64,000 nt of DNA from Convolutriloba macropyga (lineage: Eukaryota): the NCBI RefSeq assembly GCF_964194025.1, contig NC_134479.1, forward strand, positions 50,902,001 to 50,966,000. Reading direction: 5' to 3'. Made by a program: the position numbers and the translations under genes. Below the pieces are notes generated by a model. The model saw nothing but the letters and a program-made list of their open reading frames with translations. It searched no databases and was not told where the DNA came from. The stretch's first letter is position 1. Each line of letters starts with the position of its first letter. Below, in pieces: positions 20,756-64,000 of this stretch.

Positions 20756-20760
20756 ATAAA

Positions 20761-20987: not shown

Positions 20988-21056
20988 GTTAGTACAATTT
21001 TATTGTTTAGTAACTTTTATATTACTCAAGTTATTGTACTTGGTATTATCATAAAG

Positions 21057-23624: not shown

Positions 23625-23714
23625 ACATGTCCGATGCTGATGGCAGCATTGGAAGCGTAATTTGTGTAATGGCTTCTAACGAGGTGGCTGGTGACGTTTG
23701 CGCGGGGGACTCTG
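23625..23714 (+). CDS. Trypsin-family protease exon with catalytic Ser195 (VICVMASNEVAGDVCAGDSG)
   Basis: Acceptor ttgttttgtttcag|AC, donor TCTG|gtaaat. 90 nt, phase 1-1. In frame with both neighbouring exons. Confidence 0.92.
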
Positions 23715-24649
23715 GTAAATGCACTTTCCAAAAATAATTTCAACAAACTGATTATAAACTATTTTTTTAATGCCTCATCATACTATCATCAATGGATAGA
23801 AAACTTGAGACAAATTATTTAAAAAAATAGTTAAGAAAGCAGTATTGTGTCAAACATAATGCATAGATTTTGATGAAAAAAAACTGTCCGATAACACAAC
23901 TATTCAATAATTAAACTGTCAAAAAGTTCATGCTTCGATATAAGAGAAAAGTACGTGCTTCTGTAAAAAAATTGATAATATAGAATTCTGTTTTTTTGAG
24001 GTATCGAGTAGAGTAAGTGTTTGATTGAAGCCCAAGATGATTTTATTCCAATAATTGCGATAGTCAAAAACAAGCAAATTATTGGAAAGAAAACAAGCAA
24101 ACAAGGAAAATTTTTGAGTGATTGGTAAGTTTATCAGTTGGTAGTCATTCTTGGACAATTTGTCAAGTACATTTGTAAAAAATAAAATTCATTGGATAAT
24201 TTTGTGACATTTTCTGATAAAAAAACGCAGTCATTTTGGCTTATTTTTGCTCTGTTTGAACGTTCATTTCTGACTGCCTGATCAAAAGAATCGGGCTGTG
24301 AGAACTGCTTAAATACGGCTGGAAAAACTGCGAATAAAAATTGAATTCCTTATAAGCATCATAAGCAGGAAAAAATTGTAAGAGAAATCTTTTTCCACTA
24401 AAAAGGTGACAAACAACGGCAGGTTTTGGTTCCCTTTGGAACTGCTTTCAGGCCGTATGCAGAAGCAGAAGTTGTATATTTGGTTAGGAGAAAAACGTTT
24501 CCTGTTAAAAGATCTTTTTTCCTATTGTTTTTACATGAACGAACTATGAAATTCAGTTTTATTTACCACTAGTCAGTATTTAAGCAACCATCCATATCCT
24601 GAATTAATGAAATTACCTTCAAAAGAAGGTCACTAAAAATTTCAGCTTA

Positions 24650-32685: not shown

Positions 32686-33178
32686 ACGGGATCGACATTA
32701 CCCTCAGAATATCCATCACCGTATTTAGGTCATATTTGGCATTTGAAAGACAGGCGCTTTTGTTTAGTTAATTAATTTTAGTTCATCATAATTCTACCCA
32801 ATTGGGAGTCTGTTTATACTTTAGACAGGAAACTGTCTGTTCATACTGTAAACATTTTGTTCAGCCTTTCCTGTTTCGTGATTGAGCGTTGAACTAAAGA
32901 ACTAAAGTTATTTCCTTTTTGATCTTAATTTGTAATGTAACTTTCATTCTCCAATTTTCATCGCTAGAATTCGGTTCTAATTCAATTTTAGTAAATCGCT
33001 TTTCAAATAAACTCGCTCAATTTGTTGTAAGCTATTCGCACCGCGAATACCCGTTTCAAGAAACGATACTTCAACTAGCCTACAGAAACTTGGCAATCGC
33101 GAGGCAAAAGTCAAATCTCAGAAAATTAATAAGCATTCGCGAATCGATTAACGTACACACTTGTAATCGAGTATAACA
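32686..33178 (+). repeat. 5' LTR of element 1 (5' terminus and TSD deleted)
   Basis: Aligns to 39160-39645 with a few percent substitutions and an 8-bp duplication (GAACTAAA). Confidence 0.93.
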
Positions 33179-36100
33179 TGGCACAGTCGGCAACTGAATC
33201 CAAAAAGAAACCCCTTCATCTTGACGCATTTTGGGAAAAGCTCACCGCCACTCCGCCGCTAACGTGGCATAAATGACGCAACAGTGGAAGCTAGCACTGT
33301 TGGCAAAAGAAGGGATTCAGCTCGAACATCTATTGAAAAACCCACCAACCACGGTAACATACCAAACCGAGCCGACATACGAGGAACCAGTAGAGAATCA
33401 TACGCAAGCATCCGAAAAGGATCCAAAGGTCAGCAATCAACAACTCAAGGTAAATTGGCAAAATCGTTGTGAAAAGATGGATGAAGTTTGTAATTTGTGC
33501 GGAGACAAACCAAGGGGGATTTGTGAACAAAAGTCAGTATTACTATTGTATTTGAGCATTAGAACGGATGGACGGCGTATTTTTAAATGTAATTTTCATC
33601 ATTTTCAAATAGAGAAACAGCCATTTAAAGAACTATGGCAAGCGATGGAGGAAACCTTTACCAAAATTAGAAACATTACGTACGACCGTTTTGTCTTCGT
33701 TTCATCCAAAGAACAAAAAGGCGATTCTGCTGAAAGTGTTTACGGTCGCTTAATTGAACAGGCAGAAAACTGCAGCCTAGGAGATGAAGAAACTACACTC
33801 ATTCGAGACGCCTTTATACTTAACATGATAGATCAGGAGACTCAAAAGGAGTTACTGAAAGAAACTGTTGAACCCTCTAAAGCACTCGAAATAGCAATTC
33901 AAATAAATGGAAATGGGGGCACAGAATCAACAAAAGATAAATCAGAATTTGAATCTTACCACAAACTCAGTTAATGCCGTTAATAACTTTCAAACACGCA
34001 ATCGCAACGCGAATTCCCAAACAACCAGCAAGGACTTCACTCGATATCCATCAGTACCTCAAAACTATCAATAACTATCAATATCAGAATTTGCGTTTAT
34101 TGTGGCCAACGATGGAGTCACAATCGTCGCTAAATTCGCCACGCAAGGACAAAAAGTGCAATAATTGGGGCATAATCGGTCATTTTGCGAAAAAATGCAG
34201 AAAACCGAAACGACCACAGGGACAAGTACCCAAAGCTGCACAAACAAATGTCAACCAAATTGTGATATTTCCTGAAAAAAGTGACGACGAAGAATCCGTT
34301 AACAACATAACTAGCTATCAACAACTATACGACAAAGTCTACGACTCCAACTATGATAGTGACTCCACTGACTATGTGTCGGCTGTTTCATGTGGGTTGG
34401 CAAATCAACTAGAACCTTTAAATGCTAAGATACAATTTGGAAAGGTACAAGCAAACGCAATGATTGACTCTGGAAGTGTAGTTAGTCTTATCACGAAGAC
34501 GCTTGCAAATCGAATATTTCGAACTACACCATCTGTGAAATTGATCACTAAAAGGAGAAGAGGGACTTAAAAAATTTCTCAATTGAGCCAATCAAAGTCC
34601 TTGGACATCTCGAGACAACAGTGACATACAATAACTGGACATGCAAAGCAGTCCACCTAACAATTGTGGAGGACGGTCATAAAATCATCATTGGGAGATA
34701 TCTTTCCGATAGTCTTGGCCTTGCAATTGTTCAACAGCAACAACCAGAAAATGGTAAATGTGTTAAAAAAAACTACAAATTCTGCATGTAAAATTTAAAG
34801 ACAATCGCGGCATAATTTCCTCATTTAGTCTCAAGAACTGGCATCTCAAAGACCCATGCAGCGAGATCGAAGTTTCATCAAACGTTTACAGCAAAGCATC
34901 AAAAAGGCCCACGCGTTCCCATTAATTTACAACCTAGGGTTACGGTGGAATTAGAAAGTCTACAGAATAAAGGCCATATCGAAAAATTATCTAGTTGCTC
35001 AGACGAACTTTTCATATCTCCAATCGTGATTACAGTAAAGAAAGATCAATCTATAAAATTAGCATTAGACTCTAAAGCATTAAATAAAGCCATACATTAA
35101 AATAAATACCAAATACCTAACATTGACATGTTAATTGACACAATCTCACAACACCTCACAAACACCAAAAACGGCCAACAAGCAAATTTTTCCACATTAG
35201 ATCTCAAATATGCTTATAGTCAATTACAATTACACAAAGATAGCGCGAAAAACTGTAATTTTAGTATTATTTGTGGAGAACTTACTAGCACCTATAGATT
35301 TTAAACAGCATTCTACGGTCTTACTGACATGCTGGCAGAATTTCAAAAAGCAATGGACTATACACTGATAGGCCTACAAAACATTTATTGTTTCTTAGAT
35401 GACATAATAATTGTTAGCACAGGTTCTGGAACTGATCATCTAGCATATGTCACAAATTGTCTAAAGAAGTTAGATGACAAAAACTTGAGAATTAATCTCC
35501 AAGAATGTCATTTTGCAAAAACGGAAGTTGAATGGTTCGGGTACAAATTTACCCAAACTGGCATATCACTACTTGAAAGTAAAACTGCAGCAATTCTAGC
35601 AATACCGCCACCATCAACACTGAAAAAACTACGATCTTTCCTCGGCTCAGTACATTACATTGGCAAATTCATACCACACCTAGCACAACTGTGTCATACA
35701 CTTAGACCACTTCTCAAAAAATCCACAAAATATATTTGGACAGAAGAACACAATAAAGATTTTAACTTAATAAAGGAAAAAATTGCTATCATTACGGAGA
35801 ATAGCCACTATAATCCGAAATTAGACGTTAGAGTTAAATGTTACGCTTCAAGTTGGGTTGGGAGCAGCACTTGATCAAAATACACGTGAAGGCTGGAAAC
35901 CAACAGCATTCGCGTCGCGATTTCTAAACTCAAAAGAGGAACGTTACAATGTCAAGGAACTTGACTTATTGGGAATTTTCTGGTCCATTGAATATTTTAA
36001 ATACTACTTGCATGGAAAAAACTTCACTGTAATAACAGATCATCGCGCATTACTATCCATACTAAAAGAGAACAGATCAAAAACATCTTACACTAGTCAA

Positions 36101-39033
36101 CTTTCTAGACGTATTGATCGATTACTCCTATACATTTTCACAATTGAACACATGCCTGAAGCAAAAAAGGGGCTGGTGGATTACCTACCCAGAAATCCAA
36201 AAAAGTTCCCACCTATGAGGAGCATTTCGTTGTAGTAACAATATCCAAAATTCGTGAATCAATGGAACACTTGATTAAAAATAAAAAGCACACTATACAT
36301 AAACTTAACAGCATATTAAAATCACATTCACCGTCAAATCATCCAAATCAGTTAATCGCACCGCAAATGCCTACATCAGTGAACAAAAATCTGCAATTAT
36401 GTACCAAACCAGTTGCATCAAAATCACTACATTGTAAAAAATTGAAACCATTCGCGCCGCAATTAACACATTCAAATGCCACAGTTAATCCATATTCGAA
36501 TACACCATTCGCATCGCAAATGCCTTGTAAATTATTTAAACCACAATTTGTACCAGATGATAACGAATAATTCACTTTCTATTATTAAATGTCTTGCAAA
36601 AGCACTGCAAAAGCCAGACAATAAAGAATGTGAAAACTCTGAACAATTATGCCCAATAAAGCCCATTAATGGTATCAAATCACGTAATCAACACAAATAT
36701 TCCAAATTAAGCGCAAAAACACATATTAATGAGTATAAATATAACCCACTGAAAAAAAAACTCAATTTTGCCCAAAATTAACTCAGAATTAAGTCATATC
36801 AGAACAACTCTGTCAAGAAAATCGATAAAATGCCAAGAGCAAGGACGAATAAATCTACCCCGACGAAGGCCCGAGTTACCTTTTCGGATACCACACTATC
36901 AACACCTGAAACCAATACCTCATCCAATAAAGAAAGCATCCCATCGGGCAGCATAATTGTTGCAGCGGAAACCCTCAACAAAATCTTTAGTAAAAAGCTA
37001 CTAGCCATTCTCGCCGGGAAGGATGTAACTATAAAAGAAGTCCGTGACTGCATACTAAGAGAGGGACCAGAAAGGTTGCGAGAAATTAGCCCGTACATCT
37101 TTTCATACTGGCGGGACCTTAGTGTCAAGCATGGGTGTATTTGCCTGGATGAACGGATCGTTATACCCAAGGCAATAAAGGATGCAGTATTGGAGGACAT
37201 CCATTCAACGCATCATCCAGACAGTTTCGGGATGCTGTCAATAGCGTAAAATGTTTGGTGGCCATATATCCATCGGGATATACTGGCGAAAGCGAGCGAG
37301 TGCAAAGCCTGCACGGAAATTGGTAAGAACTTAAAATCCGTGATTCCGCACTGCAAATGGTCACCTTTACCAAAATGTGTTGAGCCGAATGACGAAATCC
37401 AATTAGATTTCGTTGGACCAGTGACTAACGAAAAGGGCATAGAACAGTATTTTATTACAAGCGTAGAGAGATATTCAAAATAGCATACAGCAGAAATAGT
37501 AAATAACGCTTCTGGTTCAAATGTAATTAAATTTCTAAAAAACTACATATTTAAACACGGGGTACCTAGAACTATTAGATTAGATCAAGCTAGATGTTTT
37601 ACAGGAAAAAAATTGAATTTTTTTTACAGAAAATAATATTTCACCTGTATATGCACCCGCAAATGATCATAGAGCAACAGGCCTAGTAGAACGTCTTATT
37701 CAAACAATTAAACGTCAATTATCATGTATGAAAACACAATTGAATAAATAAATCAATTTAGAACAATTACTACATGCAACTATACAACTACTAAGAATTT
37801 CAAAACTAAAAACAATAGATATTCCACCATTCCAGGCACACTTTGTTAGAAAATGCAACACACCAATTTCAAATATCACCTCTATACCGAAAAACAAAAA
37901 TTTAAATTATAATAAAATAATTAAACATTATTAAGATGAAGACACAATTCCAGGCAGATCCTATCTGAGGGATAAGCAGTGGGCAGACACGGCCTTATGC
38001 TCCGACACAGAAATCGAGAAAGTAATTTGCGCTGCAAATGCTCGAGCCAATAAAGAGCAAGAAAAAATCAAGGATGGCGAACCGCGGCTCATCTGGTCCG
38101 AAGGAGTGGGTCGAGCAATTCCGTGTAGTGAACGGAGCGTACAGGTGAAAATTGCGCAAAAATCTACGAGAACCGACGCCAGAAAAAGAATTTAGACGGT
38201 TTGTATGAAGTTCTTGCCCCTGGTAGTACGGTTGGTAAGATAAGCCCAATTACAAGTGTCATCAAAGAACCCAATCGACCGGAAGTGCGTGTAAGAAATT
38301 CCGATATTGCCAAATCTGGAACAAAAAACGAGCGAGATACAGAACTGGGACAGTATATCGAATGCAGGCCGAAGAAAATTTGCGAAAAAACGATTGAACA
38401 AAAATTACAAAAACACAAAAAGATCTAGTTGGAAAAAACCTAGGAATTAAGAAAATTAAACGTAATAAATGACCAGCAGGTAATCTCAGTGCCGTTTCAT
38501 CGGGTAGATCTTGCATTTCAACGTCAAGCAACGTCTCAGGTGCATTGAGAATGAGGATACTCAATCGCAACCCGAAGAATGATGATGCTTTTGTCAACCG
38601 ACCGGATTTAACAAAAATCCTTCACTTTAGCCCGCCTGTGCCACTTGCAGTACCGCCGAACAATCCCAACAAAGCTGGACCATCCGCGCCACAGGTGGCT
38701 TCACCACAATTACCAACACCGATATTGCGTAAGACTCAGGGTAAAGACAAGAGACAAATTACGGTGAGCGATATATCCGACTCAGATACGTCATCAGTTA
38801 GACGAAGCAAAAGGATGTTGAAAAAACAGAAAAAGTCGACAAAGTCCATTGTTGAAAATGTACAAAGTACTGAAGGATATTCGGCTAATATACCCGTATC
38901 AGAAACTACATTTATTGGAGTGGTGACACCGCAGAACCCCAATGAGAGATAGACTATTGATCCTAATCCGAATTTGCCAAGAGAAATGACTGTCCTTGAA
39001 GCAGAAAAACAGGCAGAATCTGATTCAGACTAA
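33178..39033 (+). pseudogene. Element 1 gag-pol polyprotein, fragmented
   Basis: MAQSATESKK start, zinc knuckle GHFAKKC, PR MIDSGS, RT YCFLDDII, RH ITDHRAL, IN HSTH...ECKAC, LDF, RLDQA, GLVER. Many stops and frameshifts. Ends EAEKQAESDSD*. Confidence 0.93.
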
Positions 39034-39153
39034 ACTCAAAAAACTTTCTGAATTATATCTATTTATTATTTAATATTCTATTATATATTTAACCGTTTAA
39101 TAGGTACTAATTTTCTGATTTTATATACTATTTTTTTCTCCAACAGGGGGAAA

Positions 39154-39645
39154 TGTCATACGGGATTGATATTACCCTCAGAATATCCATCACCGTATTT
39201 AGATCATATTTGGCATTTGCAGGACAGGTGCTTTTGTTCAGTTAGTTAATTTTAGTTCGTCATAATTCTACCCAAATGGGAGTCTGTTCATACTTTAGAC
39301 TGGAAACTGTCTGTTCATACTGTAAACATTTTGTTAAGCCTTTCCTGTTTCGTGATTGAGCGGTGAACTAAAGTTATTTCCTTTTTGATCTTAATTTGTA
39401 ATCCTAAATTTCATTCTCCAATTTTCATCGCTAGAATTCGGTTCTAATTCAATTTTTGTAAATCGCTTTTCAAATACTTTCGCTCAATTTGTTGTAAGCA
39501 ATTCGCACCGCGAATACCCGTTTAAAGAAGTGATATTTCAATTAGCCTACAGAAACTTGGCAATCGCGAGGCAAAAGTCAAATCTCAGAAAATTAATAAG
39601 CATTCGCGACTCGATTAACTTACAAAACTGTAATGGAGTATAACA
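39154..39645 (+). repeat. 3' LTR of element 1 (492 bp)
   Basis: TG...CA termini, preceded by the PPT. Confidence 0.95.
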
Positions 39646-39741
39646 CACTTTTTGTCAAGCCCCTTAGGGACAAGTAACTCTTCATATCATGATTCTATTA
39701 AAGACAAACCTCAGTTACAGTCAAATGATGCCCAATGATCA

Positions 39742-40235
39742 TGTCATACGGCAATGGATACCCTTCATGTATCCATATCCGTATTTGATTTTATTTAGTT
39801 GTTGTAAATTCCATTTGAAGGGCAAATGCCATTTAAGTTCAGTTGATGTACACTTCCTCCCATTTTAGCAGTTTTTGTCTGTTCACTCTGTCTGTAAAGG
39901 AAATACATTCGTTCACGATATAAACAAATCCAAGAGTTGCTTCCGTTATGCGTGATAAAACTTTGAACAAACTTTCTTTCTTAAATTCTATCATTCTTAA
40001 TCTTCATTCTCCAATTTGCAGCGCTAACGCTCAGTTTAATTTAATTCTTGCAAACGCTTCTCATTTGAGCTCAGTAGTTTTGACCAGAGTCAATCGCACC
40101 GCGATTGCCCATTCTAGAAAATAACCATTTGAACGTAACAACTAAACTTGCCATTCGCGGCGCAAGTGCCTATCTCAACTTGTACGAGAGCATTTGCAAT
40201 TCAATTGACTATACTCATTGTGCATGAGTATAACA
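39742..40235 (+). repeat. 5' LTR of element 2
   Basis: TGTCATACGG...GAGTATAACA, near-identical to 48212-48705. Confidence 0.97.
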
Positions 40236-40250
40236 TGGCGCAGTCAGCAG
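40236..40250 (+). promoter_or_regulatory. Primer-binding site complementary to a tRNA-Ser 3' end
   Basis: TGGCGCAGTCAGCAG directly abuts the LTR. It complements ...CUGCCGACUGCG-CCA of metazoan tRNA-Ser with one mismatch, at a position where element 1 has the matching G. Confidence 0.8.
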
Positions 40251-43200
40251 CGGACTCAAAGAAAACACCACTGCACATAGAAGCATTTTGGGAGAAACCG
40301 ACAGCAACACCTCCTCTGACGTGGGACAAATGGACGCAGCAATGGAAACTGGCTCTACTTACTAAGGAAGGGATACAATTAGACACCCTGTTAAACGATC
40401 CCCCCGCAACGGTGACTTACCCGCATGAACTACCTACGAAGAACCGGTAGAAAACCACACACAGGCAACAGAAAGAGATGGTAAAGTTCGAAATCAACAA
40501 TTGAAAGTAAACTGGCAAAACCGTTGTAAAAAGGTTGAAGAAATTGGGATTCTCTGTGGAGACAAACCGTGGGGAATTTGTGAGCAGAAGACGATATCGT
40601 TGATATATCTGAGCATTGGTACAGAGGGACGGCGGATTTTCAAGAGTAAATACCCTCATTCTCAAATAGAGAAACAACCTTTTAAAGACTTGTGGCGGGC
40701 AATGGAGGACTCATTCACAAAGGTTCGTAATATAACTTACGATCGCTTCGTTATCTACTCGTGTAAGCAGCAAAAAGGAGAGTCGGTGGAAAGTTTCTAT
40801 GGTCGTCTCATAGAATTGGCGGAAAATTGCACTCTGGGTAGTGAAGAGACTACATTGATCCGTGATGCATTCATATTGAATATGCTTGATCACGAGACAC
40901 AGAAGGAATTGTTGAAGGAAACAGTAGAACCACCAAAAGCATTGGAGATGGGAGCGCAGAATCAGCAGAAAATAAACCAAAACTTGATGTCAGGTACTAC
41001 TTCTGTGAATTTCATTAATAGTAACCCAGTACGCAATCGCAACGCGAATGGATCTTCAACAAAACGAGACTTCACACGCTACCCAACTGTCCCTCAAAAT
41101 TATCAATATACGAGTGTTTGTATGAATTTTGGTCTCCGTTGGAGTCACAATCATAAGCAGATTTGTCCCGCGAATGGTAAGAAATGCAAAAATTGTGGTA
41201 TTATGGGTCATTTCGCCAGAAAATGCCGCAAACCGAAAAAGTCGCAGAATCCGATACAGAAAACTCAAAAATCAAATGCAAACCAAATTGATCAATCGCC
41301 GGAAAAAAGTGACGATGAAGAATCCGTAAACTATATAACAAGCTATCAACAATTTTATGAACAGGTGTACGATTCAAACTATGATAGTGATTCAGATGAC
41401 TATGTAGCGGCGATTTCTTCTGATTCAGTTCATCAATTGGAACCACTGAACGTGGAAGTTCAAATGGGAGAAATAAGAACATCTGCTATGATTGACTCTG
41501 GAATTGCCGTCAGCATCATAACAAAAAGTTTAGCGAACAAAATCATCCGATCCACAAAATCAGCCAAATGGACAGATACAACAGAAAAAAGGAATTTGAA
41601 AACTTTCTCAAACGAACCAATCAAAGTCATTGGGCACTTGGAAACCACAATAATCTACAACCAATGGAAAGACACATCAGCGATGCTGACTGTGGTAGAC
41701 GATGGGCACAAAAATATCATCGGAAGAGATCTGTTCACTATATTGGGACTTGCAGTTGTTCAACAACAACCAGAAACTGGTAAATGTGTTTATAACATCA
41801 ATAATTCTACATGTAAAATTAAAGAGACAATTGCGACGCAATTTCCACATCTAGTTTCAAGAATTGGCTTATCTAAAACACATGTAGCGAAATCAAAGTT
41901 TCATCAAAAGTTTACAGCAAAGCATCAAAAAGGTCGACGTGTTCCGATAAATCTCCAACCTAGAGTGTCAGAAGAATTAGAAAGATTACAGACTGAAGGT
42001 CATACCGAAAAACTATCTAGTTGCTCTGACGAACATTTTATCTCCCCGATCGTAACCACAGTGAAAAAAGATCAGTCGATAAAGCTAGCATTAGATTCTA
42101 AAGTACTAAATAAAGCAATACATAAAAATAAATACCAAACGCCTAATATCGAAATGTTAATTGATACCATCTCACAACACCTTACAAACACACAAAACTA
42201 CCAACACGCATATTTCAACACATTAGACTTAAAGTATGCATATAGTCAACTAAAATTGCATCATGACACAGCAAAACACTGTAATTTTAACATCATATGT
42301 GGCGAATCTACTGGTACATATAGATTCAAGACTGGTTTTTATGGACTTACAGATATGCCGGCAGAATTCCAAAAAGCTATGGCTTACACACTCATAGGCT
42401 TGCAAAACACATACTGTTTCTTGGACGATATCATAATCGTTAGTACCGGCACTGAAGCAGACCATTTAGCATACGTTTACAAGTGTCTCAAAAAATTAGA
42501 AGACGATAACTTAAGAATTAACCTCCAGAAATGTCACTTTGCTAAATCGGAAATAGAATGGCAAGGTTATAAATTTACACAAACTGGAATATCACCTTTA
42601 GAAAGCAAAACAGCAGCAATTTTAACAATACCACCACCAACAACACTAAAACGACTTAGATCAATTCTAGGGTCAGTACACTACATCGGAAAATTTATAC
42701 CACACTTACCACAATTATGTCACCCTCTTAGACCACTGTTAAAGAAATCTGTAAAATTCATCTGGACAGATGAATACACGAAACATTTTAATCTGATTAA
42801 AGAGAAAATTGCAAACAGTACAGAAAATAGCCATTACAATCCAAAATTGGATGTCCGCGTAAAATGTGATGCTTCACGTTCAGGATTGGGGGCAGCATTA
42901 GAACAAAACACACCAGATGGTTGGAAGCCAATAGCATTCGCGTCACGATTTCTCAATTCAACGGAAGAACGCTACAGTGTCAATGAATTGGAACTGTTGG
43001 GGATAGTTTGGTCAATTAACTATTTCAAATACTATTTGTACAGAAAAAATTTTACAGTAGTGACGGATCATAGAGCCCTATTGTCCATACTTAAAGAGCA
43101 TCGATCTAACAAATCATACAATAGTCGACTATCTCGATGGATCGATAGATTACTTCCGTACAATTTCACAATTGAACATATGCCAGGCGCAAAGATGGGC

Positions 43201-43423
43201 CTCGTTGACTACATTTCCAGGAACCCATTTGCCAGAGCTAAAAAGATATCTACATACGATGAACATTTTGTTGTAGCAACAATTTCAAAAATCCGTGATT
43301 CATTGAAACATTTAATTATAAATAAACAGACAGCAGCTGCAAAATTTAAAAGCATTTTAAAGTCAAATTTGCCTTTGCAAAAAGTAAAACGACCATTCGC
43401 ACCGCGATTACACAGATTACTAA

Positions 43424-46400
43424 GTGTTAATTCACCTAATTGTAAGGAAGCATCTGCATCACGATTAACTACTTCACCATTGAAAACACCATTCGTACCG
43501 CAATTAACACTCCCCAATTCTAAAATTAATTCGCATTTTGAACACCCATTTGCGTCGCAAATGCCACTTAAAGTTACAAAATTACAATTTGCACTAATTA
43601 ATCGTAAAGTCAATAATTCACATTCTATTAACAAATTCGCTGCAAAAGAGGTGCAAATGTCAGACAGTAAAGAATGTGAACAATCTGAACAATTATCCCC
43701 AATACAGCCCATTAATGGTATTAAATCAAGTAATCCACCTAACAACACTGAATTAAGCGCGAAAGCACAAATTCCTAAGTATAAATACCACTTACACAAA
43801 AATCACTCGCTTTTTGCCCAAATTCAGCCTACAAAACACTACTTTGTGAATAAACACAATAAATCTCTCATGTCAAACAATTCAATAAACAGTATAAAAA
43901 CAATGTCAAAGGCCAAAGCAACCCGCTCTAAATCAACCTCTACAAAGGCGAGAGTAACTTTCTCAGACACGACTCCTTCAACACCTGGATCTAATACAAC
44001 ATCACACACAGAAACCAGACCTGGTAGTATGATAGAGGAGGCCGACGACATTATGTTTACTGAGACACTCAATAAAGTGTTCAGTAAGAAGTTCTTGGCC
44101 ATACTGACAGGAAAGGATGCGATACTAAAAGAAGTAAGGGACTGTGTGATCAGAAACGACGCGGATCGATTACAAGAGATAAGCCCTTATCTCTTCTCAT
44201 ATTGGAGAGATTTAAGCGTCAAACATGGGTGTGTCTGCCTCGACGAAAGAATTGCCATACCCAAATCAATAAAGGACGCGGTGCTGGAAGATATCCACTC
44301 CTCACACCCAGGAAGTTTCGCCATGCTCTCCCTAGCCCAAAATATCTGGTGGCCCTACATCCACAAAGATATACTGGCAAAAACCAGTGAGTTCAAAGCT
44401 TGCACGGAAATTGGTAAGAACCTCAAATCAGTGATTCCGCACCGCAAATGGACACCTCTACCTAAATGTAGTGAACCAAACGACGAAATACAATTAGACT
44501 TTAGTGGACCAATTTTAAATGAGAAAGGCATAGAGCAATATTTTATTACAAGTATAGATAGATATTCTAAATACCCTACAGTAGAAATAGTAAATAATGC
44601 ATCAGGCCCAAATGTAATCAAATTCTTAAATAATTATATATATCAACACGGAGTACCTAGAACTATTAGACTAGATCAAGCTAGATGTTTCACAGGAAAA
44701 AAGTTTGAGATTTTTGTACTGAAAATAATATTACAACTATATATGCACCAGCGAATGATCATAGAGCAATCGGATTAGTAGAGCGTATTATTCAAACAAT
44801 TAAACGACAATTATCTTGCATGAAATCAAAATTAAATAAAAAATTTAATTTAAAAACTTCACTAAAAGCAATAATACAACGATTAAGAGTATCAAAACAA
44901 AAAACAATAAATATCACACCATTTGAAGCACAATTCGGTTGAAAATGTAACACACCTATATCAAATATCACAACAAAATCTGATAGTAAAAATCTGAATT
45001 ATAATGCAATAATTAATTATTATTTAGACGAAGATACAGTTCCGGGCCGCTCCTACCTGACAGAAGAACAGTGAGAGGATACGGCTCTATGTTCTGACAC
45101 GGAGATTGAAGTGTCATTTGTCATTTGCGCCGCAAGTACCCTTGCAAGAACTGAGCAAGAGAAACGAAACGATGGAGAAGAACGTTTCATTAGTTCAGAC
45201 GCCGTTTGCCGCCCAATCCCTTGCTCGGAACGTAGCGTGCAGGTGAAGTTGGCTCGCAAGCTACACGATAACCAACGTCAAAAGAAGAACCTAGATGGCC
45301 TATATGAGGTGCTAGCACCAGGAAGCACTGTGTGCAAAGTAAGCCCCACGACGAATGTGATAAAAGAGCCACACAAACAAGAAGTACGGGTTAGGAACTC
45401 GGATATCGTAGTGTTAATTCACCTAATTGTAAGGAAGCATCTGCATCACGATTAACTACTTCACCATTGAAAACACCATTCGTACCGCAATTAACACTCC
45501 CCAATTCTAAAATTAATTCGCATTTTGAACACCCATTTGCGTCGCAAATGCCACTTAAAGTTACAAAATTACAATTTGCACTAATTAATCGTAAAGTCAA
45601 TAATTCACATTCTATTAACAAATTCGCTGCAAAAGAGGTGCAAATGTCAGACAGTAAAGAATGTGAACAATCTGAACAATTATCCCCAATACAGCCCATT
45701 AATGGTATTAAATCAAGTAATCCACCTAACAACACTGAATTAAGCGCGAAAGCACAAATTCCTAAGTATAAATACCACTTACACAAAAATCACTCGCTTT
45801 TTGCCCAAATTCAGCCTACAAAACACTACTTTGTGAATAAACACAATAAATCTCTCATGTCAAACAATTCAATAAACAGTATAAAAACAATGTCAAAGGC
45901 CAAAGCAACCCGCTCTAAATCAACCTCTACAAAGGCGAGAGTAACTTTCTCAGACACGACTCCTTCAACACCTGGATCTAATACAACATCACACACAGAA
46001 ACCAGACCTGGTAGTATGATAGAGGAGGCCGACGACATTATGTTTACTGAGACACTCAATAAAGTGTTCAGTAAGAAGTTCTCGGCCATACTGACAGGAA
46101 AGGATGCGATACTAAAAGAAGTAAGGGACTGTGTGATCAGAAACGACGCGGATCGATTACAAGAGATAAGCCCCTATCTCTTCTCATATTGGAGAGATTT
46201 AAGCGTCAAACATGGGTGTGTCTGCCTCGACGAAAGAATTGCCATACCCAAATCAATAAAGGACGCGGTGCTGGAAGATATCCACTCCTCACACCCAGGA
46301 AGTTTCGCCATGCTCTCCCTAGCCCAAAATATCTGGTGGCCCTACATCCACAGAGATATACTGGCAAAAACCAGTGAGTTCAAAGCTTGCACGGAAATTG

Positions 46401-47398
46401 GTAAGAACCTCAAATCAGTGATTCCGCACCGCAAATGGACACCTCTACCTAAATGTAGTGAACCAAACGACGAAATACAATTAGACTTTAGTGGACCAAT
46501 TTTAAATGAGAAAGGCATAGAGCAATATTTTATTACAAGTATAGATAGATATTCTAAATACCCTACAGTAGAAATAGTAAATAATGCATCAGGCCCAAAT
46601 GTAATCAAATTCTTAAATAATTATATATATCAACACGGAGTACCTAGAACTATTAGACTAGATCAAGCTAGATGTTTCACAGGAAAAAAGTTTGAGATTT
46701 TTGTACTGAAAATAATATTACAACTATATATGCACCAGCGAATGATCATAGAGCAATCGGATTAGTAGAGCGTATTATTCAAACAATTAAACGACAATTA
46801 TCTTGCATGAAATCAAAATTAAATAAAAAATTTAATTTAAAAACTTCACTAAAAGCAATAATACAACGATTAAGAGTATCAAAACAAAAAAACAATAAAT
46901 ATCACACCATTTGAAGCACAATTCGGTTGAAAATGTAACACACCTATATCAAATATCACAACAAAATCTGATAGTAAAAATCTGAATTATAATGCAATAA
47001 TTAATTATTATTTAGACGAAGATACAGTTCCGGGCCGCTCCTACCTGACAGAAGAACAGTGAGAGGATACGGCTCTATGTTCTGACACGGAGATTGAAGT
47101 GTCATTTGTCATTTGCGCCGCAAGTACCCTTGCAAGAACTGAGCAAGAGAAACGAAACGATGGAGAAGAACGTTTCATTAGTTCAGACGCCGTTTGCCGC
47201 CCAATCCCTTGCTCGGAACGTAGCGTGCAGGTGAAGTTGGCTCGCAAGCTACACGATAACCAACGTCAAAAGAAGAACCTAGATGGCCTATATGAGGTGC
47301 TAGCACCAGGAAGCACTGTGTGCAAAGTAAGCCCCACGACGAATGTGATAAAAGAGCCACACAAACAAGAAGTACGGGTTAGGAACTCGGATATCGTA
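43424..47398 (+). repeat. Direct tandem duplication inside element 2: 43424-45410 and 45411-47398
   Basis: Junction GGATATCGTA|GTGTTAATTC. I found 3 substitutions and one extra A between the copies. Confidence 0.95.
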
Positions 47399-48211
47399 AA
47401 ATTTGGGACACGGGCTGAAAGAGAAACGGAACTCACACAGTATATAGAGCGACGTCCGAAAAAGATCAACGAAAAAACCCTTGAACAAAAAATCCAGAAA
47501 CACAAGCGAGATCTTATTCGAAAAACACTGGTGACAAAAAGATTAAACGTAATAAGAGACAAACGGATGATGTGAGTGTTGTTTCATCAGGACGGTCATG
47601 TATCTCTACAGCCAGTAATATTGCAAGATCGTTAAAAATGAGAATTCCCAAGAGAAATCCGAAACACGACGAGGCATTCCTGAATAGACCCGATCTAACG
47701 CAAATACTTAGATTTAGCCCAATCGCACCGCAATTGGCTACATCAAATACGGCAGTACCATCTGGGGCGCAAATAGCCTCATCAGTGCAACCAAAGCCTA
47801 CACCCATTTTGCGGAAAACATCAAAACGCCAACTCACAATTAGCGACACATCAGATTCTGATACTTCTTCAATTCGGAAAAGCAAGCGAACCTTGAAGAA
47901 AAAGACCCAGAAGTCACAAACGATTCTTGAAAAATTTCGAAGCACAGAAGGTTACACTGATAATCAGGACATTGGAGTTGCGAGAGATTCTAATGAATGG
48001 GTTGAGGAACCCCAAAATTTACCACGGGAGATGACTGTTCTCCAGGCAGAAAATGCAGAAAACAGCGATAGCGAATAAACTTGAATAAAGCAAAACTTTC
48101 ATAAACTTTTATTTTATCTATTATTTAATATTTTATTACATAGTAACCGGTGAATATTTATCAATTTTCTGATTTTAATTAGTAATTTATTTTCTCTGCA
48201 AGAGGGGGAAA

Positions 48212-48705
48212 TGTCATACGGCAATGGATACCCTTCATGTATCCATATCCGTATTTGATTTTATTTAGTTGTTGTAAATTCCATTTGAAGGGCAAATGCC
48301 ATTTAAGTTCAGTTGATGTACACTTCCTCCCATTTTAGCAGTTTTTGTCTGTTCACTCTGTCTGTAAAGGAAATACTTTCGTTCACGATATAAACAAATC
48401 CAAGAGTTGCTTCCGTTATGCGTGATAAAACTTTGAACAAACTTTCTTTCTTAAATTCTATCATTCTTAATCTTCATTCTCCAATTTGCAGCGCTAACGC
48501 TCAGTTTAATTTAATTCTTGCAAACGCTTCTCATTTGAGCTCAGTAGTTTTGACTAGAGTCAATCGCACCGCGATTGCCCATTCTAGAAAATAACCATTT
48601 GAACGTAACAACTAAACTTGCCATTCGCGGCGCAAGTGCCTATCTCAACTTGTACGAGAGCATTTGCAATTCAATTGACTATACTCATTGTGCATGAGTA
48701 TAACA
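48212..48705 (+). repeat. 3' LTR of element 2
   Basis: Follows the PPT and is followed by TSD GAACA. Confidence 0.97.
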
Positions 48706-55994: not shown

Positions 55995-58900
55995 TTTATT
56001 TGGAGTTGTCTTGGTTTTCGGCTTCATTTAACGTCATCAAAATTATGTCCTCCTAGAGTGTGACGGAGCCCTCTGGTCTGCTAACAGGTGAACTCGCGGT
56101 TCGCATTAGAGACAGCTAATAGTTGAACTCGCGGAAGAGACGCATTGCCGATGTTTGGTGATATATTTCCGTCATCCGGGATTTGCTCTGCAATCGATTG
56201 CACTGTTTCCACCACCGAAACGTCGGTCGACTGGAAACGGTCGACTGCATGGTCTTTTGGAGCTGCTGTAATACCCGAATCTATGGAAAAGTTTTCTAAG
56301 CAGTAGTAAGATGGGCTGCGGCAATCTCTGTCAGAGGAATGCTTGTTTGTGTTGCTGAGCTCGTCGTTGGCGGAACTTGTTGTAATGCAGATGTTGATGC
56401 ATTTGGGGATGGTATCACAAGTTCTTCTTGCGAATCCGGTTTGATGACACCGAGCTCGTTTCGCAGAGCAGAAAAGTTAGGCAAATTAGGGATGCGCTAC
56501 CGCATCGCGAATGCAAAGTTGGAACGAGAAGAAGATACGCCAAAGCTTGTTTGTTGTTTTCTGTTTACATATTCACAGCTGGTGAAAAATAGTCCTTAAT
56601 GCATGCTTTATTTTGAACGAATTTGTAGCCAATTTTTCTTCTTTGATACATGTGAGTCTGTTCATAATTGTTTGTTTTAGTCTTTCTACCAAACCGATTG
56701 CCCAATGGCCGTTAACGGGAGCGTCAACAGTTTCAATATTATTTTTGTTGCAGAAGGTCTTGACTTGGTGCCCTAGAGTAAATTTTGCTTGATCCAGACG
56801 AATATAACGTGGAATTCCGTGATTTTCATTGTACATGTCCAAAAATTGTAATACATTAGGATCATTAGCTTTTTCATAGGAAGGAAAATTTGAAAATTGG
56901 TCTATTGCATCTAAAGGTTTTTTTTTCATTTCCATTTTCATCAAAAATTGGTGCCCCAATATCAATTTCTATTTCTTGGTTCAGTTCAGCTCACTGTATT
57001 TGAGGTCGAAATTGCGTATCGAGAATTACATATTTAAGATTCTTACCAAATACATTACAAGGTTTACATTTTGTGGATTTGGCTATTAATTCCCGGTTCA
57101 TGTTTACCCACCAGTGCGTGGCCATACACAACATTCCCCAGGTAACAGGGCGGCTCGCGTTGAGGTTGTATATGAGCGCCTCTCGTAGTACATTTGGGAT
57201 CGCAATCTTTTCGTGAATGCAAACGCAACCAACGCAAATATGTATATCGCGCCAATACGAATGAATGTATGGGTTGGATTCTTTCAACCTCGCTTCGTTG
57301 TTTGTCAGGTTGCAGTAGCGCACCTCTTCGAGGACCGCGTCTTTACTAGTTATTGATGTTATAAGGGATTTGCTAAACACATTCCCTATAATGTTATTGA
57401 AGGTTGGTATTTGTGGGCTTGGGGTTAGGGGTGTGCTAGCTTCAAATGATGCCTCAGTGGAAGTTGGTGTAGTGGGTTTTAGGGAGGAGTGGCTCTGCGA
57501 AAGAACTAGAAGGAATAGAGTGTGGATTCGCTGGGCGATGGGAGTCATAAACTGGACTCGGGTGAGTCATCGCTTCTTGGGAGTCATAGTGATTGAATTC
57601 ATTGAATTAGCAATATCAAGTTTAGCGACAATAAATTGATCATTGCAAGCGAAAACTCTATTAGATTTTTGTTTAAGGTGTTTAGATATACAGTCAACTA
57701 CGCCCACTTTGGCACCTGGCATATGCTCAATTTCAAAATAATAGGGTAAAAATCTATCTACCCAACGGATTAACCGACTATTGTATAACATATAAGAACG
57801 ATTTTTTTATAGGATTGAAAGAAGAGCCCTATGTTCTGTTATATCTTTCGGCTTTCATCCATCTACTGTTAATTGTTCGAGAGCGGCTCCGAGTCCGGAA
57901 CGAGATGCATATACTTAACACGCGTTACGAGTTGCTGATTATACTGAAAATTTTTGATTGCATTCAAAATGCTATTCCTTATCCCAATATAACAGTTTTC
58001 ATGTATTTAACTCCAAACATATTTAGGTGATTTTTTCAACAAGGGACGTAGTGGATGACTAATTTGTGGAAGATTTGGAATAAAATTACTTATGAAATGT
58101 ACTGAACCAAGAAAACAACGGATTTTTTTTTGGTGTTTTTGCTACTCCAAGATTCAAAATGGCAGACGTTTTGCTTTTGATCGGTGAAATAACCCATTGT
58201 GATTTAAGATAACTAAGCCTGTCAATTTCTAATTTAGCGAAATGACATTCTGGGAGATTAATTCTAAGATTTTCGTCATCCAATCTTTTGAGACAATTTA
58301 ATACATATTGTTTTTGATCTTCTTTTTTTCCCTTTGCCGACAATTAAAATGTCGTCAAGAAAACAATATGTATTTTTAAACCAACTAAAGTGTAATCTTT
58401 TGAAATTCCGCCGGCATTTTTGTTAAACTGTAAAATCCAGATTGAAATCTGTATGTGCCTGTCATGTCGCCGCTCACTATATTGAATTTACAACGATTAG
58501 CTGTAAAGGGGTCTAGGTTTAGCTGACTGTACATATTATGTACCCGCAGCTGACTCTTCGTATTTCAAGTCCAATGTAGAAAAATAGATGATGTTTTTCG
58601 ATGCGGGCTCACTAATCTGGACTTGTTTGAGAAAATTTGTCGTTGTGGTATAGCGGCTTCGCGTACCTAAAACGCATGTTTAGTGCTGTTGACCACCCAC
58701 GTTGCGAGTGATTGGTTTTGGAAAACTGCAGCCGCTTCCGGATTCGACAAGTAGTGTTGTGGAAACTTTGCCGATTTTGATCGGCATGTGTAGGGTTCTA
58801 TTTTTGCGAGGTCATCATGAATTGTGGACACCATGTCGTCCTGGCCGCTACTATAGTCGAATTCGTAAAGTTTTGCTGATTGCAAGAAATTGACAGAATC

Positions 58901-59902
58901 TTCTGGGTGTGGTTCTTCATCCACATCCACATTGTTTACTGACTTTTTCTTTGGGTTCTGTGGTTTTTTCAGTTGTTGCAGGTTTTGTTCTGGTGAGACA
59001 TTTGTCCCGTTGACTAGGAAGCCAATTTCCACCACAATTTGAACAGTAAAGCGGGACGGCTGCCTTGCTTGTGGAAATTATATGAAAGTAACCAGTTCGA
59101 TGATCGAGTACTGGGTGTATACTAAATTGTGTTACGCTATCCGGGATGAGGGTCTTATTGTGTTTTTGAATATGATGTTGGTTGCTTTTTCCAATTACCA
59201 GGTTTATTGCTAAATCCCTCGCTTGTTGCGGCTCTACCGTCTGTCTGAGAGGTTCCTTTTGAATCTCAGGATAAATCAGATTCTTAATGAACACGTCCAT
59301 GATCAGGGTTTCTTCCTTGTTCTCATAGTCACGACTTTTGGATGAATCTTTGCGTTTCCCTTAGAAGTGTTCAACTGTTCCTCCACTAATTTGCTTCGTG
59401 ATTAGGAAAACATATCTATCCAAAATGACATTTTTGGTCAAATGAACGCATCCTCTGCTATTTTCCAGAACTCGGCAGTCAATCATTATATGCGGATTTT
59501 TGCCATTCAGAATCCTGCGCCCCTCTACACCAAAATTTAGATAGAGTAAGGAAACTGTTTTTCGGTTCGCGAGTGGCCACTGTTTCTCCCCACATATGAT
59601 TCCATTTTCAATCAATCTTTGCATTTATTATGCTCTTTATTTGTTGGGAATTGCGAGCATATCGTTCCCGTTCAGATTTGAAGATGCTTCTACGATTGTT
59701 TTTTCATAGATTGGTTCCAGGGGAAGTTCAAGCACCTCGGGTTTCGGACTGAAAAATTATCAAGTATGGTATTTTCTTTAGCAAGTAGCGCTCATTTATA
59801 TTGAACTCTCCACTTCTCCCATCTGAGAGTTAAGTCGAGTGTCGGTTTGTCACAGAATGCGTCAAGTCCAAGTGGTGTTATTTTGTTTGCTGACTGCGCC
59901 AT
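55995..59902 (-). pseudogene. Element 3 gag-pol remnant (left copy, includes integrase)
   Basis: MAQSANKITPLGLDAF, CFLDDI, EHMPGAK, YIHSYWRDI, IRLDQA, GLVER, EAENQDNSK*. Large deletions across PR/RT and after the IN core. Confidence 0.85.
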
Positions 59903-60229
59903 GTCGTACTCTACTTATTTCATGTAGGCTTTTGCTGCGCGAGAGCGTGTTTCTTTTACAAATTGGATTTCGCTGGGCAAAATCAGAAGTCTAATTCTAA
60001 TTTTTAACTTGCTGAATTCTATTTTGATCTTTATTAATTCAATAAAGAGAGAAGCAAATAATTAAGAATTAAAAAATGACGCGAAAAAATCATGTGGATA
60101 TATCCAAGTGTGATCAGGTGATCAGACGTGTCTTGACACGAGGCGGGAAACACTAGACAAGATGAATGAAATTAACTCGAAGCGTGAAACGTGAAACAAA
60201 CAAATGAAGATGAAATAGGAATTAAGGGT

Positions 60230-62999
60230 ATTTTTTTTCTGGTTTGCGACTTTTGGAAAGATGCTTGAAATGTCTATTAATTAAATGAAAATAAGGCTCA
60301 TAGAGTTGAGTTTCTTGCCCCGCGGAATATTTTTCATTCTGAATTAGTAAAGAATGCTTAAAATGATGTACTTTTTGGCATTCATTAATGAATTTTGAGA
60401 TCTGGGGGATAAATGAAACTCATGCTTGTGTAAGCGAGGGTCAAATATGCTAATTGTTCTTATTGAACTTATGATAGATTCACTATTAGCTGTGATTTGT
60501 GGTGCGGGATTATACATTTTTAGCAAATTTTGCAAACGGGATGCGGATTTGCTAGATTTTAAATTTAGAGACTCTGCATATGCGGAAATAATATCAAGTT
60601 TAGCGACAATAAATTGATCATTGCAAGCGAAAACTCTTTTAGATTTTTGTTTAGGGTGTTTACATATGCAGTCAACTACGCCCACTTTGGCACCTGGCAT
60701 ATGCTCAATTTCAAAATAATAGGGTAAAAATCTATCTACCCAACGGATTAACCGACTATTGTATAACATATTAGAACGATTTTTTATAGGATTGAAAATA
60801 GAGCCCTATGTTCTGTTATATCTTAAAATTATTTGCGTACAAATAGTTTTTGAACTATTCGATGGACCAAATTACATCCAGGAGTTCTAATTTGGTAACA
60901 CTGTATCTCTCTTCACAAGAATTTAGAAACTTAGATATGAGAGCGATCGGCTTTCATCCATCTACTGTTAATTGTTCGAGAGCGGCTCCGAGTCCGGAAC
61001 GAGATGCATATACTTAACACGCGTTACGAGTTGCAGATTATACTGAAAATTTTTGGTTGCATTCAAAATGCGATTCCTTATCTCAATATAACAGATTTCA
61101 TGTATTTAACTCCAAATATATTTAGGTGATTTTTTCAACAAGGGACGTAGTGGATGACTAATTTGCGCAAGATTTGGAATAAAATTACTTATGAAATGTA
61201 CTGAACCAAGAAAACAACGGAGTTTTTTTGGTGTTTTTGCTACTTCAAGATTCAAAATGGCAGACGTTTTGCATTTGATCGGTGAAATAACCCATTGTGA
61301 TTTAAGATAACTAAGCCTGTCAATTTCTAATTTAGTGAACTGACATTCTGGGAGATTAATTCTAAGATTTTCGTCATCCAATTTTTTGAGACAATTTAAT
61401 ACATATTGTTTTTGATCTTATTTTTTTCCTTTACTGAAAATTAAAATGTCGTCAAGAAAACAATATATATATTTTTAAACCAACTAAAGTGTAATCTTTT
61501 GAAATTCCGCTGGTATTTCTGTTAAACTGTAAAATCCAGATTGAAATCTGTATGTGCCTGTCATGTCGCCGCTCATTATATTAAATTCACAATGATTAGC
61601 TGTAACGGGGTCTAGGTTTAGCTGACTGTATATATTATGTACCCGCAGCTGACTCTTCGTATTTCAAGTCCAATGTAGAAAAATAGATGGTGTTTTTCGA
61701 TGCGGGCTCACTAATCTGGACTTGTTTGAGAAAATTTGTCGTTGTGGTATAGCGGCTCCGCGTACCTAAAACGCATGTGTAGTGCTGTTGACCACCCACG
61801 TTGCGAGTGATTGGTTTTGGAAAACTGCAGGCGCTTCCGGAGTCGTGTAGTGTTGTGGAAATGTTGCCGATTTTGATCGCCCTGTGTAGGGTTCTCTTTT
61901 TGCGAGGTTATCATGAATTGTGGACACCATGTCATCCTGGCCGCTACTATAGTCGAATTCGTAAAGTTTTGCTGATTGTAAGAAATTGACAGAATCTTCT
62001 GGGTGTGGTTCTTCATCCACATCCACATTGTTTACTGACTTTTTCTTTGGGTTCTGTGGTTTTTTCAGTTGTTGCAGGTTTTGTTCTGGTGACACATTTG
62101 TCCCGGTGACTAGGAAGCCAATTTCCACCACAATTTGAACAATAAAGCGGGACGGCTGCCTTGCTTGTGGAAATTATTTGAAAGTAACCAGTTCGATGAT
62201 CGAGAAATGGGTGTATACTAAATTGTGTTACGCTATCCGGGATGAGGGTCTTATTGTGTTTTTGAATATGATGTTGGTTGCTTTTTCCAATTACCAGGTT
62301 TATTGCCAATTCCCTCGCTTGTTGCGGCTCTACCGTCTGTCTGAGAGGTTCCTTTTGAATCTCAGGATAAATCAGATTCTTAATGAACACGTCCATGATC
62401 AGGGTTTCTTCCTTGTTCTCATAGTCACGACTTTTGGCTGAATCTTTGCGTTTCCCTTAGAAGTGTTCAAATGTTCCTCCACTAATTTGCCTCGTGATTA
62501 TGAAAAAATATCTATCCAAAATGACATTTTTGGTCAAATGAACGCATCGCCTGCTATTTTCCAGAACTCGGCAGTCAATCATTATATGCGGATTTTTGCC
62601 ATTCAGAATCTGGCGCCCTTCTGCACCAAAATTTAGGTAGAGTAATGAAACTGTTTTTCGGCTCGCGAGTGGCCACTGTTTGTCCCCACACATGATTCCA
62701 TTTTCAATCAATCTTTGGCATTTATTATGCTCATTATTAGTTGGCAATTGCGAGCATATCGTTCCCGTTCAGATTTGAAGATGCTTCTACGATTGTTTAT
62801 TCATAGATTGGTTCCAGGGGAAGTTCATGCACCTAGGGTTTCGGACTGAAAAATTATCAAGTATGATATTTTCTTGAGCAAGTAGCGCTCAATTATATTG
62901 AACTCTCCACTTCTCCTATCTGAGAAGTAGGTCGAGTGTCGGTTTGTCCCAGAATGCGTCGAGTCCCAGTGGTGTTATTTTGTTTGCTGACTGCGCCAT
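60230..62999 (-). pseudogene. Element 3 gag-pol remnant (right copy, gag to RNase H linker)
   Basis: Near-duplicate ORFs of 57612-59902. It shares the PR/RT deletion but keeps RH and linker segments lost from the left copy. Confidence 0.85.
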
Positions 63000-64000
63000 G
63001 TCGTACTCTACTTATTTCATGTAGGCTTTTGCTACGCGAGAGCGTGTTTCTTTTACAAATTGGATTTCGCTGGGCAAAATCAGAAGTGTAATTCTATTAT
63101 TAAACTTGCTGAATTCTATTTTGTTCTTTATTAATTCAATAAAGAGAGAAGCAACTAATTAAGAATTAAAAAATGACGCGAATAAATCATGTGGATATAT
63201 ACAAGTGTGATCAGGTGATCAGACGTGTCTTGACACGAGGCGGGAAACACTAGACAAGATGAATGAAATTAACTCGAAGCGGGAAACGTGAAACAAACAA
63301 ATGAAGACGAAATAGGAATTAAGGGTAAACTAAAATGAACTAAATTATATCATTGTAATAAATTTTACTAAAAAAATTGAACATTAAATCATGAATAAAG
63401 GTATCACAGGGGCCAATGATATACTATGGGAAGCAGACTGAAAAAATGAAACTTTCTCTAACAATGTCCGATTCAATTTTAAAAGAGATCAAGGATTTTG
63501 AACAATTTTGGAGTAGCAATCATACAAATGATTGTCAATTTTTCTTGGATTTTAGACCAGGCATTTTTCAAATTCCGAGGAGCTTGCGAGCAAACAAATA
63601 TATTGTTATTATTTCAAGTTTGTTATAATAATGCTGACTTCAAATTTTTGTGCGAGAGTGCAAAGTGGATTTGAGCAACACTAGCTAATTGAAATTTTAT
63701 GCCAGATTCATATTGATAACAAACTAGCTAATAGAAATTACGCAGATTCATATTGATAACAAACGCAAACCAACTCTATACGAAAAACTATGTTGAGCAA
63801 TAACAAATTTACAAACAGATGTCCATGTTTCAAACACAACCCAATTCTCATAGAAGGGTCAATACTGCTTTCAATTACGCTTTGGAATTTTACAAAACAG
63901 TAGTTGCAATTTTCATCTTTCGTGCAATTAATTTGTAAAATTTCTAGCTAAAGTAGGAATAATTTTGAGAATCTATATGAATCACAAGAAAGCAGTGGGA

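Follow-up and report, generated by a model that had tools for sequence, protein, structure and literature searches.

Intron-less genomic copies point to alternative in-frame splicing of a single-frame Ty3/gypsy retrotransposon in Convolutriloba macropyga

Described systems and the element at this locus

Splicing that joins upstream coding sequence to a reading frame beyond integrase is known from Cer1, a Ty3/gypsy element of C. elegans whose spliced mRNA joins Gag-frame exons to a post-integrase open reading frame (ORF) and yields the export factor CERV (PMC10309623, PMC3315495). We analyzed a stretch of 64,000 nucleotides of Convolutriloba macropyga (contig NC_134479.1, positions 50,902,001 to 50,966,000; hereafter the window) that carries a long terminal repeat (LTR) retrotransposon at 39742–48705, which we call element 2. 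Because many genomic copies of such elements lack exactly one of two in-frame GT–AG segments, their RNA is very likely alternatively spliced.

Element 2 resembles Cer1 in its single-frame gag-pol, its long post-integrase ORF and a predicted spliced mRNA that joins upstream in-frame peptides to this ORF, and in both elements the splice sites must be skipped to produce genomic RNA. In size, CERV (517 aa) is also close to the core-less protein predicted here. The CERV exons, however, derive from N-terminal Gag (five exons, one of them in another frame), whereas those of element 2 would comprise either the whole of Gag and protease (PR) or the HHCC segment of integrase (IN), with both joins in frame and a predicted internal start. 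An export role of the CERV type for the spliced product of element 2 may be suggested by analogy.

Drosophila copia, Arabidopsis EVADE and barley BARE1 carry an intron inside the coding region of a single ORF and thereby produce a Gag-rich subgenomic RNA (PMC5580714, PMC7197481), but these are Ty1/copia elements, unlike element 2, and PMC5580714 found no such conserved splicing for Ty3/gypsy elements of Arabidopsis. Splicing of copia removes the whole POL region from within one ORF, a coding-region intron as in element 2; in EVADE and BARE1 the splice shifts the frame and stops Gag, whereas the upstream donor of element 2 would lead in frame into a 350-aa tail, so the copia/EVADE-type end of the frame after Gag or Gag-PR is absent from this join. 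A second intron, removing the integrase core only, further separates element 2 from these three. The plant Ty3/gypsy element Ogre (PMC6317226) likewise has a donor shortly after the protease, but its intron is a short spacer without coding function, which has to be removed before Pol can be translated, whereas splicing in element 2 would remove Pol. In yeast Ty1, the alternative transcript Ty1i encodes p22, a truncated trans-dominant regulator (PMC4599808), which parallels our prediction; p22 is a Gag fragment, whereas the predicted product of element 2 would be integrase-derived and spliced, and an inhibitory role for it might be proposed by analogy. In-frame loss of the integrase core turned up nowhere in the literature searched, which lacks most subscription papers.

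Element 2 is a Ty3/gypsy LTR retrotransposon by its domain order of Gag, PR, reverse transcriptase (RT), RNase H (RH) and IN, its TG...CA LTRs, primer-binding site, purine tract and short target duplication. The 5′ LTR (39742–40235, forward strand, as for the other parts of elements 1 and 2 given below) is 99.6% identical to the 3′ LTR (48212–48705, with the purine tract just before it) and precedes the primer-binding site TGGCGCAGTC; its end overlaps the gag ATG at 40235, and the flanks, GATCA and GAACA, form a 5-bp target duplication with one change. The longest open stretch (40429–44778) is a single-frame gag-pol running from a zinc knuckle through PR, RT, RNase H, an insert and the integrase HHCC finger to the start of the core, and its product (P0001) contains the Pfam domains zf-CCHC, RVT_1, RT_RNaseH, Integrase_H2C2 and rve. 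The best match among solved structures is Ty3-G Gag-Pol (E 1.9e-08), and named RT relatives are only 31–33% identical, with no named Mag references among them.

Two candidate introns share one acceptor, TATTTAG|. Intron 1 (41780–45027) starts at donor 1, G|GTAAAT, after the protease and covers RT, RNase H and the whole of integrase as far as the core reaches, and intron 2 (44414–45027) starts at donor 2, G|GTAAG, after the HHCC finger and corresponds to the integrase catalytic core. Between them lies a GC-rich segment of ~170 codons (43903–44413; hereafter the Met-HHCC segment), with an in-frame ATG (43903), the motif RVTF (43951–43962), an S/T/P-rich stretch and the HHCC finger, ending at donor 2. 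The common last exon, encoding the C-terminal tail, begins at 45028–45409, where element 2 has breaks, and its remainder (47399–48078) leads to the family stop codon. A first-pass annotation of the window had located every one of its motifs correctly (41779, 34753, 44413, 46400, 37322, 57047 on the minus strand, 45027, 47015, 37935 and 23714) and had rightly assigned all splice sites to phase 1. Its estimate of the distance between donor 2 and acceptor also holds, at 615 nt in the open frame of the close relative L033 as well as in 11 of 20 close copies, 614 nt in element 2 and 613 nt in element 1, a relative described below. In the L033 frame both introns are multiples of three (615 and 3249 nt), and the frame is kept whether they are retained or removed.

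Other statements of that annotation stood in part. The family frame runs unbroken from PR to the end in L033 (1571 aa), whose natural open frame served only as a coordinate ruler, but the copy in the window is itself broken: its open stretch stops inside the integrase core, its tail has further breaks, and its coding region, with several breaks, is ~4–5% divergent from its family. Since the LTRs are nearly identical while the coding region is broken, element 2 is probably a recent insertion whose template was already defective. The additional sites at 46400/46401 (donor 2) and 47015/47016 (acceptor) are present, together with a second ATG (45890), but they lie inside a 99.8% identical tandem duplication (45410–47398) of 43423–45410 and are therefore not independent of 44413 and 45027. 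The duplicated region as a whole (43423–47398, unit ~1.99 kb) reflects a recent event or an assembly artefact, and its second unit was seen in none of the 20 close copies of element 2.

Intron-less copies and constraint at the splice sites

A probe across the join of donor 2 to the acceptor matched 28 genomic places, compared with 2 for its reversed control, and probes across the donor 1 join matched 5 against 0 and 8 against 1. Over all searches, 33 distinct places lack exactly the segment from donor 2 to the acceptor (among them three, and two, that are tandem repeats of one event) and 12 lack exactly the segment from donor 1. When 20 of the 28 donor 2 copies and all five donor 1 copies were aligned, the match to a full-length relative ended at the donor and restarted at the acceptor. 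Sharp examples are L143 against L093 (98% and 97% identity) and L160 against L032 (95%); some spliced copies have relatives of only 65–75% identity, and their edges are accordingly less sharp. Two of the donor 1-joined copies, L158 and L160, belong to the family of element 2.

With a free gap of 0–30 nt allowed, 17 of 18 matches were the exact join and the 18th used an AG 6 nt downstream. An acceptor-side search in two clades, with no donor assumed, returned 34 matches without the AG, comprising 15 joins to donor 2, three to donor 1, one copy joined at a shifted donor and 15 point decays; no other breakpoint occurred among these 34. A donor 1-side search in one clade returned 17 matches: five are joined to the acceptor (one rearranged just after it) and one, in frame, to a CAG closer by, while 10 show point decay and one was unmapped.

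LTR pairs flank each of the 20 junction copies retrieved in full (18 of the pairs at 95–99%), and 15 of the 20 have exact and distinct 5-bp target duplications. On a tree built from the 330 nt before donor 2, with four mis-mapped copies, 16 near-identical family copies and three tandem copies omitted, the pattern of spliced (23) and unspliced (62) copies requires 18 changes, of which strong branches force 13; 47–57 of 500 shuffles gave values equally low. Every join seen keeps the frame, including those at the shifted donor, the acceptor 6 nt downstream and a cryptic acceptor. Frames are open through the natural joins in L138, L148, L151, L160 and L161, and in L160 the donor 1 join is followed by 352 open codons that end at the normal stop.

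The first-pass annotation had also envisaged a protein joining the HHCC finger to the C-terminal extension. Donor 2 joins of this kind exist, but in 17 of the 20 donor 2-spliced copies examined the RT/RNase H region upstream is still continuous or nearly so (the other three are tandem copies with an unrelated deletion there), so a stand-alone HHCC-tail protein needs a separate start. The copy L219 (G000:C6:50083500-50093000) is a doubly spliced insertion of 4073 bp in which donor 1 is joined to a non-conserved CAG ten codons past RVRF and donor 2 to the acceptor, both joins keeping phase. The same joins appear in database proteins from ENA assemblies (P0002, P0024, P0051, P0082, P0089, P0090, P0134, P0142, P0076 and P0117), which may derive from the same genome or a relative and were not counted as independent. 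Four DNA-like contig sets contain many unrelated single-copy joints, among which, of those listed, 44392>45011 and 44388>45017 lie near but off the donor 2 join; these sets were used for no conclusion on splicing.

Codon usage at the sites was examined genome-wide and in family representatives. Searching with a degenerate pattern that covers the HHCC finger's end recovered GGT AAG in 838 matches, GGT AAA in 267 and GGV AAR in 27, so that GGT occurs in 1105 of 1132, counts that weigh copies rather than independent lineages; the codons adjoining donor 2 vary freely in the match listings. We further compared 38 family representatives drawn from 80 copies by clustering at 85% (median pair identity 57%), in which GGT accounts for 8–50% at the other 23 conserved glycine columns. 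Because the representatives were selected by their donor 2 codons, their own donor 2 column is biased, and for this site we used the genome counts instead; no such selection affects the acceptor and donor 1 columns. The leucine codon at the acceptor is TTA in 25 of 27 representatives, ranking first of 51 leucine columns (median 0.36, next highest 0.60), and the preceding tyrosine codon is TAT in 26 of 26.

In the poorly conserved stretch of protein that follows the protease, 19 of 26 representatives have a G|GTRA or G|GTAG site, and the seven without it include four from a short-linker clade and three that are apparently decayed. In the short-linker clade donor 1 is present in 0 of 9 copies, and 6 of the 9 have GGTAAA at a glycine ~23 codons downstream; donor 1 and this shifted donor never occur together in one copy, and the shifted-donor copy noted above is joined here. 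Donor 1 is present in 50 of 56 long-linker copies, ~20 of which are near-copies. As in exitron-like introns, the GT–AG ends are conserved beyond what the protein needs. None of the outcomes that the first-pass annotation had set against its own proposal turned up, free synonymous variation at these codons among them, with the exception that one large group reads GGT AAA and has yielded no spliced copy. That group, comprising L118-L124 and the 267 GGT AAA matches, has a longer insert (~1 kb), and no donor 2-spliced copy was found in it. Strong codon constraint was also observed ~100 nt before the acceptor (window ~44925–44940, encoding PFEAHFG), where GCA is used for 27 of 28 alanines and TTC for 26 of 29 phenylalanines; this may be a splicing or packaging signal.

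Base composition changes in steps along the element. GC content in element 2 is 0.42 in gag, 0.40 in PR, 0.34 in RT, 0.39 in RH, 0.33 in the insert and 0.45 in the Met-HHCC segment, then 0.40 in the first 90 nt after donor 2, 0.26 in the rest of the core and 0.49 in the first 380 nt after the acceptor. Both the steps reported earlier and the accompanying caveat, that the drop begins late after donor 2, thus hold for the family of element 2. Mean GC at fourfold sites (GC4) is 0.40 in PR, 0.28 in RT-RH, 0.49 in Met-HHCC, 0.21 in the core and 0.42 in the tail; GC4 of the core is below both flanks, and GC4 of RT-RH below the Met-HHCC segment, each in 32 of 32 representatives. Since the steps persist at fourfold sites, amino-acid content cannot explain them and is ruled out as their sole cause. 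Taken together, exact intron-less copies for both junctions, synonymous constraint and fourfold-site GC steps support the central proposal of the first-pass annotation, in-frame splicing from two donors to one acceptor, and both introns are very likely spliced.

Predicted products and competing explanations

Several conserved features suggest an internal start upstream of the HHCC finger. Within the 24 codons before RVxF, a PP1-docking motif, an in-frame Met lies at a distance of 8–22 codons in 19 of the 22 representatives that have RVxF, compared with 1, 3 and 2 of 22 in three upstream control windows, and position −3 of this Met is a purine in 16 of 19. Some 50–120 nt upstream of the Met is a promoter-like motif, TTTGCC-17 nt-TCAGT, found in strict form in 17 of 38 representatives and in loose form in four more; TCAGT is an animal initiator consensus. 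In element 2 the candidate internal promoter (43809–43840) consists of the box GCTTTTTGCC, 17 nt and the initiator-like position, which reads ACACT here and TCAGT in most families, its conserved A falling at 43838. The motif occurs at 0.93 per kb in the insert, compared with 0.003 in shuffles and 0–0.06 in other regions. A palindromic CGC motif was considered as a promoter signal and rejected, being enriched in the LTR and insert (0.7–0.8 vs ~0.15 per kb) but dispersed and family-limited.

We consider it likely, taking the explanation as a whole, that a single-frame Ty3/gypsy RNA is alternatively spliced from two donors to one acceptor and gives rise to the following products, including a regulator. 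Unspliced RNA would serve as the genome and as the only source of complete Pol. Splicing from donor 1 would yield Gag-PR-tail and would probably raise Gag-PR over Pol, favoring structural over enzymatic protein as in copia. Splicing from donor 2 would act mainly on RNA from an internal promoter in the insert between RNase H and integrase, giving a protein of ~520 aa with the Met-RVxF start, the S/T-rich stretch, the HHCC finger and the tail but no catalytic core, which would regulate the element, most likely through RNA export or integration. That internal promoter and donor 2 splicing combine to produce such a core-less, integrase-derived regulator we regard as plausible, at about even chances. 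Spliced full-length RNAs would sometimes enter particles, undergo reverse transcription and insert by means of enzymes provided in trans, leaving the copies observed. More tentatively, and at slightly less than even chances, these elements may form a ‘complex’ Ty3/gypsy clade with an accessory gene inside integrase, in which an internal promoter and a catalytic-core intron would produce a Rev/CERV-like zinc finger-tail regulator with a phosphatase-docking RVxF, while the other donor sets the Gag:Pol ratio, all in one frame.

Several observations weigh against this account. RNA levels, product levels and functions are inferred from sequence, and the genome counts reflect copies rather than independent lineages. 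The GGT AAA group (267 matches) contributed 0 of the 28 joins; had it been joined as often as GGT AAG, ~9 should have come from it, so donor 2 is not used universally. A promoter-like motif was found neither in 17 of 38 representatives, of which many are decayed, nor in the deepest clade (L104/L111); the LTRs lack the box-initiator layout, and none of the 20 donor 2 copies proved to be a retrocopy that begins at the internal site. The predicted fold of a natural joined protein has low confidence, with a mean predicted local distance difference test (pLDDT) score of 57.7 when alignment-based and 38 from the single sequence, and a Foldseek search with it returned nothing at E ≤ 0.001 (best match Ty3 integrase, E 0.54). 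A confident beta-rich part near residues 265–295, within the tail, may be the integrase C-terminal domain.

Splicing could be real while the 5′ end of the Met-HHCC RNA comes from spliced-leader trans-splicing or from a third cis acceptor (TCAG|T) rather than from an internal promoter, an alternative we judge unlikely. Trans-splicing affects 30% of genes in one acoel (PMC9911081). The initiator-like motif contains AG in most families, and L219 joins donor 1 to a CAG inside the Met-HHCC segment before joining donor 2 to the acceptor, although that cryptic acceptor is non-conserved and sits downstream of the Met. The box-initiator spacing is nevertheless fixed at 17 nt in 16 of the 17 strict cases, and the window family and L103 read ACACT and CCACT, keeping the A while losing the AG, so the position fits an initiator better than an acceptor. 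None of the 17 donor-side matches joins to TCAG|T, and no join of donor 1 to a conserved acceptor before the Met segment was found either in that search or in another whose one match joined to the main acceptor, the power of these searches being low.

A different possibility, which we hold to be rather improbable, is that the sites owe their conservation to RNA handling (U1 binding, export or a limit on Pol) and that spliced RNAs are by-products without a useful protein. The protein products are predictions, spliced copies amount to ~3% of donor 2 matches (28 vs 1105), and the GGT AAA group keeps GGT yet gave no join. By-products would not readily account for an acceptor constrained as strongly as the donors, a frame kept in every join down to the rare ones, exon-like GC4 in the retained segments, or the conserved Met, in good context, with which the middle segment opens. 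It is highly improbable that the deleted copies stem from fixed hot spots of DNA repair or of template jumping by reverse transcriptase. Deletion is certainly frequent in these families, as the many unrelated joints in the DNA contigs and in L040 and L049 attest, but the deletion ends here share only 1–2 nt, so template jumping is no explanation, and all four kinds of join begin at GT and finish at AG. The searches described above gave no near misses at the donor 2 join and no other breakpoints at the acceptor, and at least 13 independent origins are forced on the tree.

Neighboring features and implications

Element 1 (32686–39645), a decayed relative 71% identical to element 2, has donor 1 at 34753/34754, donor 2 at 37322/37323, the ATG at 36830 and a decayed acceptor at 37935, as well as a promoter-like box near 36767 with TAAGT at the initiator-like position. 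Donor 2 of element 3, a distant and heavily decayed relative, lies on the minus strand (57047/57046, within 57040–57060); element 3 (57848–63327) contains a 3.1-kb duplication at 96% identity. Palindromes of the type ATTCGC-NNN-GCGAAT, possibly a factor-binding site, number 20 in the window (33036–48625), all within the LTRs, insert, gag and tail of elements 1 and 2. The hexamer of donor 1 recurs as G|GTAAAT at 23714 (23709–23720, forward strand), directly after ...VCAGDS of a trypsin-like host gene, of which it is likely a donor; the next exon past 23714 was looked for and not found. ORFs with an RT domain (RVT_1) at 17607–20234, next to the trypsin-like exons (20570–20992 and 23714), probably belong to another, non-LTR element. 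The window also contains a tandem array at ~8400–15000, with units of ~1164 and ~1420 nt, and, at 282–4720, long inverted repeats with a low-complexity GTAAGTAG-rich tract crowded with donor-like words.

These results bear on the balance between Gag and Pol in single-frame Ty3/gypsy elements and on whether such elements encode regulators; in the surveyed literature, Cer1 alone represents an animal Ty3/gypsy element with a spliced regulator. Exact intron-less reinsertions, combined with synonymous constraint, can map the splicing of an element without RNA data. Our reading predicts two junctions, one internal start site and the corresponding junction peptides. If it is true, a whole clade would carry two in-frame introns over its enzyme domains, one of them the integrase core, and would express its genes in the style of complex retroviruses.

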